Shown: positions 50,611 through 52,080 of the stretch, in pieces
Position numbering within the stretch: the stretch's first letter is position 1
How the letters are laid out: the number at the start of each line of letters is the position of its first letter
From: Candidatus Uhrbacteria bacterium
GTDB lineage: Bacteria; Patescibacteriota; Patescibacteriia; UBA9934
DNA length: 64,000 nt
Assembly: GCA_018673485.1 (NCBI GenBank)
Contig: JABHCP010000012.1
Coordinates: 30,393 to 94,392, forward strand
Direction of reading: 5' to 3'
Position numbers and translations under genes: made by a program
The notes under the pieces: model-generated
The model's database searches: none
Told to the model about the DNA's origin: nothing
The model's input: only the letters and a program-made list of their open reading frames with translations

Positions 50611-51699
50611 ATGCGGTTGCCGTTTAAAATCGGCTGCTTTGAACTCTTTCGAGCTCTAGCTATGCTTTCCATGTCACTGCAAAAATGCAGTCGCTGTTTA
50701 ATATCAGCTGCTCTTTCGAGCTCTGGATATTGTTACCATAGCATAGGTGCAGGAAAATGCAAGCACTGCAGTATGGGCCGGGAAGGTTTTTATAATAGCG
50801 GATATTCAAGTAGTATGAATCATATGCACTGCCCATCATGTCAAAAAAAGGATTTCATATGTTTTTTAAAGAAGATAAGAAAGGCAAAGATTTTTGTTTG
50901 CAAAAATTGTGATCTACATTTTTCAAAATCCGCAAAGCTATCGAGCAGAAAATGGTATGAGAAGTCCTTAAAAGATAAAACCGCAATGACTTTGCCAGAG
51001 GTCTGGCTTAAATGGCAGAAGAAAATTTATGCACAATTTTTGAGGCGCTCAGGCGAGGGGTTGAGCTTGCTTGATGTGGGTTGTGGAGATGGTAAGTTTT
51101 TAAAGCAGGCTCAAGATCGCGGATATCACGTGACTGGAATTGACTTGAACAGTATCCTGGTCAATCAAGCAAGAAAAGAGAAAAAGATTGAATATCATGC
51201 AATGGATTTTAAACAGTTCAGGAAGGAGTTCTCCAAGCAGCGCTTTAATGTCATCACTTTTTTTCAGGTGCTTGAGCATATGAAGAATCCGAATAGTTTC
51301 ATCAATATGGTGCGAGGTGCACTTAATCCTGGCGGATATATCGCATTCAGTGTGCCAAATAGAGATCGTTTTCGTTTTGCTACAAGCGTAGTTCCTCAAT
51401 GGGATTCACCTCCTCATCACAGAACCTGGTGGAATAAGGTGGCTATAAAACATCTGCTCAAGCGTAAAGGATTTCGCATTTTACAGTTAAAAGAATACAA
51501 AAAACAAGTTAAAATCCCTGTGAGAAGAGGTTGGAGTAAACAGGATGCCACGATTGTTCATCAGCTCTCATATTATTCGAAGTTTAAATACTATATTTTG
51601 AAAAATACTGCATTAAAGCTGTCTCGAAAGAAATTCATCAACATGCGTGCGAATGTTAAGGGGCCTTACTTGTATGTTTATGCGCGCTTGGAGAAATGA
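50611..51699 (+). CDS. Class I SAM-dependent methyltransferase with Cys-rich (zinc-ribbon-like) N-terminal region
   Basis: LLDVGCGDGKFLKQAQDRGYHVTGIDLN SAM-binding motif I; N-terminal CxxC...CxxC pairs; start uncertain, and direct nucleotide repeats lie in the first about 150 nt. Confidence 0.6.
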   Translation: MRLPFKIGCFELFRALAMLSMSLQKCSRCLISAALSSSGYCYHSIGAGKCKHCSMGREGFYNSGYSSSMNHMHCPSCQKKDFICFLKKIRKAKIFVCKNCDLHFSKSAKLSSRKWYEKSLKDKTAMTLPEVWLKWQKKIYAQFLRRSGEGLSLLDVGCGDGKFLKQAQDRGYHVTGIDLNSILVNQARKEKKIEYHAMDFKQFRKEFSKQRFNVITFFQVLEHMKNPNSFINMVRGALNPGGYIAFSVPNRDRFRFATSVVPQWDSPPHHRTWWNKVAIKHLLKRKGFRILQLKEYKKQVKIPVRRGWSKQDATIVHQLSYYSKFKYYILKNTALKLSRKKFINMRANVKGPYLYVYARLEK

Positions 51700-51783
51700 T
51701 GATTAATGACGTGAGAATGAGCTGAAAAGCAAAGATCACCAATCTGGAGACTGGTGATCAAGACGACAGCGGGAGCTGTAAGG

Positions 51784-51857
51784 TGGCGCCGATGGCAGGA
51801 ATTGAACCTGCGACCCCCTGCTCGACGGCAGGTGCTCTATCACTGAGCTACATCGGC
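51784..51857 (-). tRNA. tRNA-Asp(GUC)-like gene with an apparent 6-nt anticodon loop
   Basis: Acceptor GCCGATG/CATCGGC, D arm GCTC/GAGC, T arm GCAGG-TTCAATT-CCTGC, discriminator G, CCA encoded; anticodon stem CCTGC/GCAGG encloses CGTCGA. Confidence 0.55.
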
Positions 51858-51871
51858 TAAGGAGTGAGAAA

Positions 51872-51984
51872 TGGCTCTGGGGGCTGGATTTGAACCAACG
51901 ACTTCCTGCGTGATGGTAGGTGAACTAACCAGTTGTTCTACCGGCTTGGCAAACAGGCGAGCTAACCAACTGCTCTACCCCAGA
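51872..51984 (-). tRNA. 113-nt tRNA-like gene: canonical acceptor, D and T arms, with about 36 extra nt in the anticodon region (candidate tRNA-Gly(GCC) carrying an insertion or intron, or a disrupted tRNA)
   Basis: 5' TCTGGGG-TA-GAGC-AGTTGGTTA-GCTC-G-CCTGT-TTGCCA[36 nt]C-GCAGG-AAGTC-GTTGG-TTCAAAT-CCAGC-CCCCAGA-G-CCA; removing 51911-51946 gives a 77-nt cloverleaf with loop UUGCCAC. Confidence 0.45.
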
Positions 51985-52080
51985 TCACGAATATGATAAT
52001 ATATAACGCAAAAGTACATGTCAAGAAAACAGCACTTACGTGCTGTTTTTTTAGTGTAGTTCCAATAGGTCTTATAAGAC

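Follow-up and report, generated by a model that had tools for sequence, protein, structure and literature searches.

A tRNA-like gene carrying a tandem copy of its own D and anticodon arms in an Uhrbacteria-like CPR bacterium

Can a gene that has every arm of a tRNA, and 43 nt between the two strands of its anticodon stem, still give rise to a tRNA that reads codons? The question is raised by gene A, a minus-strand gene in the stretch of DNA analysed here (64,000 nt, hereafter the window), for which the first-pass annotation had offered three readings: an intron-containing tRNA-Gly, a tRNA gene disrupted by a small insertion, and a tRNA with a very long variable arm. The window is ordinary chromosomal DNA of an Uhrbacteria-like CPR bacterium, with the gene order rsmI-metG-cvpA-tatD, promoter, gene A, gene B, terminator, a methyltransferase gene and the atp operon (Table 1). 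Its TatD shares 100% identity with NCBI proteins that bear the name Candidatus Uhrbacteria bacterium; MBT3230349.1 and MBT7717462.1 are TatD proteins of this organism. On balance, we lean towards the view that gene A specifies an unspliced, tRNA-derived RNA that is unable to decode and that belongs, together with gene B, to a lineage set constrained in its tRNA body. This view builds on the anatomy of the gene, the duplication inside it, its lack of splice motifs and the pattern of conservation among its relatives.

Table 1. Features of the tRNA-like operon in the window, anticodon-loop lengths in the two gene slots of seven lineages, and the associated intergenic element.
Feature	Locus	Position	Strand	Detail or basis
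Promoter TTGACA-17-TATTAT, sigma-70-type, about 12 nt upstream of gene A	window	51996..52024	-	11/12 matches
Gene A, 113-nt tRNA-like, encoded CCA	window	51872..51984	-	Rfam tRNA 50.9 bits; ARAGORN intron mode; manual parse
Anticodon-stem 5′ strand CCUGU	window	51953..51957	-	pairs with 51905-51909; Rfam and folding
Anticodon-stem 3′ strand GCAGG	window	51905..51909	-	Rfam and folding
T arm GUUGG-UUCAAAU-CCAGC	window	51883..51899	-	Rfam and parse
Repeat copy 1, gene positions 6-30, GG UA GAGC-AGUUGGUUA-GCUC G CCU	window	51955..51979	-	true D arm and start of anticodon stem
Repeat copy 2, gene positions 43-67, GG UA GAAC-AACUGGUUA-GUUC A CCU	window	51918..51942	-	second D-arm-like hairpin inside insert
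Proposed duplication unit 1, gene positions 8-44	window	51941..51977	-	D arm and CCUGU-UUGCCAA-GCCGG, one U.C mismatch
Proposed duplication unit 2, gene positions 45-80	window	51905..51940	-	D-like arm and CCUAC-CAUCAC-GCAGG, 6-nt loop, one A.C mismatch
Insert hairpin GGUA-GAAC...GUUC-ACC-UACC, gene positions 43-70	window	51915..51942	-	nested-fold energy evaluation
Gene B, tRNA-Asp-like, 6-nt loop CGUCGA (U33 missing), D loop without GG	window	51784..51857	-	Rfam 62 bits
Intrinsic-terminator hairpin and T tract, end of A-B operon	window	51734..51759	-	terminator scan
First-slot loop	window (gene A)			43 nt
First-slot loop	L095			7 nt, GCA
First-slot loop	L097			7 nt, GAC
First-slot loop	L211			7 nt, CAC
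First-slot loop	L093			5 nt
First-slot loop	L011			6 nt
First-slot loop	L008			degenerate arm
Second-slot loop	window (gene B)			6 nt
Second-slot loop	L095			3 nt
Second-slot loop	L011			19 nt
Second-slot loop	L097			7 nt, CCA
Second-slot loop	L093			74 nt
Second-slot loop	L211			7 nt with A33
Intergenic element with CAGCCGAGTAWTAACCGGCAACC	L011	3487-3509
Intergenic element with CAGCCGAGTAWTAACCGGCAACC	L093	4848-4870
Intergenic element with CAGCCGAGTAWTAACCGGCAACC	L095	3818-3840
Intergenic element, variant	L210	near 3514
Intergenic element, variant	L211	near 4747

The coordinates and sequence of the 113-nt gene were verified, as were its intact acceptor, D and T arms and its CCA. In the 5′-to-3′ direction it reads UCUGGGG UA GAGC-AGUUGGUUA-GCUC G CCUGU (43 nt) GCAGG AAGUC GUUGG-UUCAAAU-CCAGC CCCCAGA G CCA, with 7/7 acceptor, 4/4 D-stem and 5/5 T-stem pairs formed (one U.G included). 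It has the features of the RF00005 cloverleaf, namely: the 7-bp acceptor, D, anticodon and T stems, and a UUCRANN T loop. The Rfam tRNA model (RF00005) gives it 50.9 bits, where the gathering score is 29 (E=5.7e-8 in the 64-kb window), in an alignment that covers 51984-51875 end to end and places a 38-nt insert in the anticodon loop. ARAGORN does not call the gene in its default mode; when run in intron mode, it calls a tRNA-Gly(gcc) of 77 nt interrupted by a 36-nt intron. Since the sequence is base-for-base the same in four independent metagenome assemblies, gene A is not an assembly artefact.

The first-pass annotation had described CCUGU and GCAGG as perfect and exclusive partners separated by about 36 nt too many. 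The pairing and the extra length are borne out; the stem includes one U.G wobble, however, and a nearer GCCGG (gene positions 40-44) also pairs with CCUGU, with a single mismatch. In a decoding tRNA the anticodon loop is 7 nt long, has U33 and carries a purine at position 37. Gene A has 43 nt between its stem strands, and a 7-nt loop can be obtained from it solely by a hypothetical excision. The reading as a long-variable-arm tRNA does not hold, given a variable region of 5 nt (AAGUC) and an insert that Rfam places inside the anticodon loop; class II tRNAs are defined by an extra arm of 10-24 nt that separates the anticodon and T stems, and gene A was rejected as a member of that class.

What gene A contains in excess is its own D arm and anticodon arm, copied in tandem and since diverged. 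Copy 1 (GGUAGAGCAGUUGGUUAGCUCGCCU) and copy 2 (GGUAGAACAACUGGUUAGUUCACCU) are identical at 20/25 positions, and their local alignment score of 25 compares with 12.3±1.9 for shuffled sequences (maximum 18; 0/200 as good). All five differences between them are transitions, and two of the five together replace a G-C pair of the hairpin stem with an A-U pair; this compensatory change within the insert is no more than suggestive of selection after the duplication (p ~0.03-0.09). Both copies have an A11-U24 pair in the D stem that is absent from every orthologous gene, and they were therefore copied from each other and not imported from another tRNA gene. None of the sister lineages examined carries the duplication.

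Read with a 37-nt period, the gene consists of the acceptor 5′ strand, unit 1, unit 2, the variable loop, the T arm and the acceptor 3′ strand, where each unit begins with UA and continues with a D or D-like arm and then an anticodon arm. The two units are identical at 24/37 positions in a global alignment. Their 3′ halves alone are not significantly alike (p ~0.07), so the unit boundary and the exact extent of the duplication are placed by inference. A GG stands before both duplication junctions, which would fit a microhomology-mediated origin: a tandem duplication of about 37 nt (tRNA positions 8-43), probably via this GG, would have given gene A an additional D-like hairpin and an additional anticodon arm. 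The earlier reading that comes closest is that of a small insertion into a tRNA gene, in that some 36 extra nucleotides do lie in the anticodon region; the inserted material is the gene's own.

Gene B follows gene A after a spacer of 14 nt. Its anticodon stem is CCUGC/GCAGG, its variable loop GGGUC and its discriminator G73, and its anticodon loop reads C-GUC-GA. We take it to be tRNA-Asp-like from its likeness to the tRNA-Asp of E. coli and B. subtilis; ARAGORN labels it ‘tRNA-?(Asp|Arg)(tc)’ in both its default and intron modes. The D loop, AGUGAUA, has no G18G19, a loss that resembles the non-proteinogenic tRNAs of S. aureus. As their anticodon loops vary in length from one relative to another, genes A and B probably no longer read codons. 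By eye, a terminator hairpin of tatD (ACAGCAC-GUAA-GUGCUGU and a U tract; window 52020-52050, minus strand) and the -35 box in the promoter of the pair appear to overlap, and likewise in L095 and L097; the terminator scan does not list the hairpin at 52020-52050.

The relatives of the locus were sought as loci encoding TatD homologs. Seven lineages, the window included, have tRNA-like genes in such loci (TatD 66-100% identical), and in all seven the tatD-atp interval contains a promoter followed by the tRNA-like genes: a pair in six lineages and an array of seven tRNAs in L008. A scan of GTDB representative genomes with TatD gave two distant matches only (35-38% identity) and no close relative. 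A metagenome scan with the TatD alignment, whose patterns are too generic for finding relatives, gave 80 loci of 34-59% identity with no linked tRNAs, and these served as a control: none of about 57 tRNAs in unrelated loci has an aberrant loop. The other 7 tRNAs observed in this lineage, one tRNA-Ala from the window and six tRNAs from L008, are normal and uninterrupted.

The anticodon loops of the 13 slot genes differ widely (Table 1). Four of these genes have ordinary 7-nt loops (GCA, GAC, CAC and CCA) and may be ordinary tRNAs. The L095 ortholog of gene A lacks the insert and has the leader, acceptor, T arm and G73-CCA in common with it. In the second slot, three genes keep GUC and the 2 nt 3′ of it in the loop, with 1, 14 or 69 nt on the 5′ side; in the L095 gene even the GUC is lost.

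Such a pattern could be explained if gene A were a decaying surplus isoacceptor, knocked out by the tandem duplication and without present function. This is the best placed of the competing explanations, and we regard it as improbable. It would account for the small loop indels that have knocked out the neighbour and orthologs of gene A, with lesions that differ in nearly every lineage, and for the absence of the tRNA-like genes from at least five relatives (L010, L099, L100, L101 and L210), which indicates that they are dispensable. In addition, the first-slot genes of L097 and L211 have 1-72 mismatches, that of L095 has a G27.A43 mismatch and that of L008 a degenerate anticodon arm, the D and T loops of gene B and of the second L095 gene are without G18G19 or C56, and the genes of the locus turn over.

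The state of the helices speaks against decay. In each of the ten genes that were parsed, all four stems are intact and no more than one mismatch occurs. In a loop-free alignment of these genes, drawn from a small sample of 7 lineages, 98.6% of 210 pair cells are paired, compared with 34-47% in slid registers, and 17/21 stem pairs have changed on both sides in a compensatory manner (0/500 shuffles as good). Furthermore, gene B and the second gene of L095, both with unusable loops, differ at 6/23 unpaired sites and at 2/42 stem sites (Fisher p=0.019), and the two stem differences form one compensatory pair. Because these two genes vary less in their stems, the structure appears to have stayed under selection after decoding was lost.

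The expression signals also argue against decay. The promoter scan covered the window, L093, L011 and L095, and in the window, L093 and L095 a scanned terminator follows the genes. In L093, L011 and L095, too, the orthologous pairs are preceded by a TTGACA-17-TAnnnT promoter, the promoters match the consensus at 10-11/12 positions, and promoters and terminators persist where both genes of the operon are aberrant (window, L093 and L011). CPR genomes are small and rarely retain dead genes. By the usual signs of a pseudogene (lost signals and random decay of helices), gene A would not be classed as one, as its sequence retains the 11/12 promoter, the terminator and all of its helices.

The two remaining explanations are both unlikely. 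In the first, gene A would decode GGY in a tandem fold, with unit 1 as its anticodon arm and unit 2 as a giant variable region of 41 nt. Each of the two local anticodon hairpins contains a mismatch (U30.C42 in unit 1 and A68.C77 in unit 2), whereas the long-range stem 28-32/76-80 is fully paired, and a cloverleaf with the nested hairpin is evaluated at -30.1 kcal/mol compared with -27.2 kcal/mol for the fold with two anticodon arms. The unconstrained free-energy fold of the 113-mer has no significant advantage over shuffled sequence (z = -1.2), and thermodynamics by itself therefore cannot choose between the folds. What commends the tandem fold is that it is just ~3 kcal/mol less stable, that the extra domain sits where class II variable arms emerge, and that the unit-1 loop UUGCCAA is the same as the canonical Gly-GCC loop of a relative's tRNA-Gly. 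Against this, the unit-1 stem has a U.G pair besides its central U.C mismatch and competes with the outer stem, Rfam favours the alignment with the insert in the loop, and 41 nt far exceeds any variable arm that we know of. The acceptor and discriminator are not Gly-like either. Bacterial tRNA-Gly identity consists of G1-C72, C2-G71, G3-C70, U73, C35 and C36, and the relative's tRNA-Gly(GCC) carries the full set (GCGGGAG...U-CCA). Gene A has U1-A72, C2-G71, U3-A70 and G73, with C35 and C36 in unit 1 only, and a bacterial tRNA-Gly identity was rejected on these grounds. Decoding through unit 1 is thus very unlikely.

The least probable explanation is the one that the first-pass annotation had named first, a true intron-bearing pre-tRNA from which a bacterial activity would excise 36 nt at or next to position 37/38, leaving a 77-nt tRNA with anticodon GCC. 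Its observations are sound: deletion of 51911-51946 does leave 77 nt that at minimum energy fold into a perfect cloverleaf (loop UUGCCAC with U33 and a purine at 37, -27.1 kcal/mol), and the GGUAG/CUACC hairpin is present in the insert at gene positions 43-47/66-70. This flawless cloverleaf and the UUGCCAA match are what an intron would predict, and they count against our preferred reading, as does the exact call by ARAGORN in intron mode. Introns are also known in the rRNA genes of CPR bacteria (PMC10714607); rRNA introns were the only relevant item that a literature search on tRNA introns and tRNA-like RNAs in CPR/Patescibacteria returned.

The first-pass annotation had called for a search for a bulge-helix-bulge motif and an RtcB-type ligase. 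A brute-force search of gene A (3-nt bulges, 4-bp helix) gave 7 candidate motifs and none with both bulges flanking the insert; in the sole candidate with a bulge in the anticodon loop, the second bulge falls in the T stem. About 60 ORFs of the 64-kb window were scanned with Pfam, and neither RtcB nor a tRNA-intron endonuclease (EndA) was among them. Rfam found no group I intron or self-cleaving ribozyme in gene A, either at the gathering score or at E<=10. The catalytic core of a group I intron (P3-P9) is a few hundred nucleotides long; the insert, at 36-38 nt, is too short for it and has no Intron_gpI match, and this candidate was rejected. A spliced gene A would be without Gly identity elements, splicing could not repair the 3-, 5- and 6-nt loops of gene B and the orthologs, and the ‘spliced’ second genes of L093 and L011 would be without U33. 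With an insert that copies the gene's own arms, an L095 ortholog without insert and 7 other lineage tRNAs without interruption, the intron-containing tRNA-Gly is not supported and is largely put aside.

The sole match to the Bacterial Y RNA (YrlA) family, at 20.6 bits against a gathering score of 69, was rejected because it falls far short of the threshold and extends over two genes across the A-B junction. A custom scan of the window revealed no further tRNA-like genes with inserts. In viral contigs, a D arm of the gene B type is absent, and a viral and phage search with the gene A T-arm pattern and BLAST found ordinary tRNAs only.

If gene A is read as an unspliced tRNA-derived RNA, the first 5′ strand of the anticodon stem would pair with the last 3′ strand into an intact 5-bp stem and the intervening segment would form a hairpin of its own. 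The product would then be a normal tRNA body (acceptor, D, T and CCA) with an elongated, branched anticodon arm. Genes A and B would be co-transcribed from the near-consensus sigma-70 promoter to the terminator, and maturation is presumably tRNA-like, by RNase P and 3′ trimming. They would form part of a lineage-specific tRNA-like set, usually a pair, found in marine Uhrbacteria-like CPR bacteria, in which selection would retain the four cloverleaf helices and not the anticodon loop.

From a constrained cloverleaf body and an unconstrained anticodon loop it would follow that the role of A and B does not involve codon reading. It would rest on the tRNA body, perhaps with the retained GUC and the discriminator. 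Genes A and B might serve as a non-ribosomal aminoacyl carrier, as a decoy or regulator that acts on tRNA-binding proteins, or as a stable scaffold. A wider proposal, which is possible if rather doubtful, is that the tatD-linked genes are an undescribed CPR class of natural tRNA-scaffold RNAs whose anticodon loop, at 3-74 nt, is a free site for indels, the structured 74-nt module of L093 included. Some members keep GUC and G73, so they might still be charged, for example by AspRS, and have a non-ribosomal use, or they might be decoys for anticodon-directed nucleases.

Several known systems share some of these properties. Archaeal and eukaryal tRNA introns have a bulge-helix-bulge that is cut by an EndA-type splicing endonuclease, with the ends joined by RtcB. 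Gene A is like them in the 36-nt size of its insert, the location at anticodon-loop position 37/38, the cloverleaf that removal restores and the hairpin in the insert. It differs from them in its CPR bacterial host, in having no bulge-helix-bulge and no such enzymes among the scanned ORFs of the window, in an insert that duplicates its own arms, and in relatives whose loop defects are insert-free. To our knowledge, the group I intron is the sole established interruption of bacterial tRNA anticodon loops. Compared with those that one preprint places in such loops (bioRxiv 10.1101/2020.01.27.920355), the insert here is only 36-38 nt long and matches no intron or ribozyme family.

In working, non-proteinogenic tRNAs and tRNA-like RNAs would be most like genes A and B, which the lost 7-nt loop sets apart from them. 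One report describes Staphylococcus aureus tRNA-Gly isoacceptors that serve cell-wall pentaglycine synthesis (PMC4574755). The non-proteinogenic tRNAs of S. aureus are, like genes A and B, extra paralogs that keep the tRNA body and are plausibly off the ribosome. The known ones keep a 7-nt loop and synthetase identity, however, whereas the loops here run from 3 to 74 nt. Unlike in the pentaglycine system, the window does not encode a tRNA-dependent FemAB-type transferase; Pfam found neither such a transferase nor a reverse transcriptase among its ~60 ORFs, and housekeeping genes only.

Allo-tRNA-like genes, for which possible five-stem junctions unusable in translation are described (Mukai et al. 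2017, via PMC7609411), are likewise metagenomic and tRNA-shaped, have extra stems and diverse anticodons, and are thought to lie outside ordinary translation. In that account they are tRNA-Sec-like (8/4 or 9/3), with long variable arms and transposon-related neighbours; the genes here have a standard 7/5 cloverleaf, a 5-nt variable loop and a CPR housekeeping locus. The tRNA fragments of integrative elements are typically 3′ pieces at element borders. In contrast, gene A contains an internal 5′-side segment (8-43) in tandem within one intact gene, and no integrase was found near it. What it has in common with the tRNA gene fragments and partial duplications that integrative elements are reported to create (PMC9897764) is the presence of repeated tRNA pieces inside or beside tRNA genes. 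Unlike gene A, the fragments reported there are partial, non-canonical tRNA genes.

If the set is functional, some ultra-small bacteria would express tRNA-shaped RNAs outside translation, and annotation pipelines would mislabel them as ‘tRNA with intron’, ‘tRNA-Gly’, ‘tRNA-SeC’ or ‘undetermined’, which would in turn distort the tRNA sets and genetic-code calls for CPR genomes. It would also be a natural case of the tRNA body as a stable scaffold that tolerates large insertions. As a caution for intron searches, a removable insert that leaves a perfect cloverleaf can come from simple tandem duplication, and that property alone is therefore no evidence of splicing.

The relatives offer some further observations. 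The second-slot gene of L093 (4508-4650), missed by Rfam and by ARAGORN in default mode, has a perfect tRNA body with a 74-nt insert that replaces loop nucleotides 32-33 and is strongly structured (MFE -61.9 kcal/mol, z = -3.6). A tRNA-derived origin was rejected for this insert and for that of the second L011 gene, as neither has significant similarity to tRNA parts. The first-slot genes of L097 (3448-3524) and L211 (4961-5035), with GAC and CAC anticodons and A73, have the non-Watson-Crick 1-72 pairs U.U and G.A, respectively; the remaining first-slot genes have U-A or A-U there. In initiator tRNA, a 1-72 mismatch weakens EF-Tu binding.

The tatD-atp interval is a hotspot of gene turnover (L008, L010, L093, L099, L101, L211 and the window). 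Besides the seven-tRNA array of L008, it contains NUDIX and pyrophosphatase genes in L093, an FAD oxidoreductase in L010, L099 and L211, and a GATase in L101. In the window, the gene that separates the tRNA pair from the atp operon encodes a class I SAM methyltransferase (50611-51699, plus strand); of the loci examined, the window lineage is the only one to have it, and its N-terminal ~140 aa are without a family. It received no tRNA-specific assignment, the matches being to generic class I families only. Finally, a conserved intergenic element of about 150 nt (by eye) adjoins the tRNA pair and ends in a terminator. It is absent from the window and has no Rfam match at E<0.1 in L093, L210 and L211. 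It contains the invariant motif CAGCCGAGTAWTAACCGGCAACC and may be an undescribed small RNA of the lineage.
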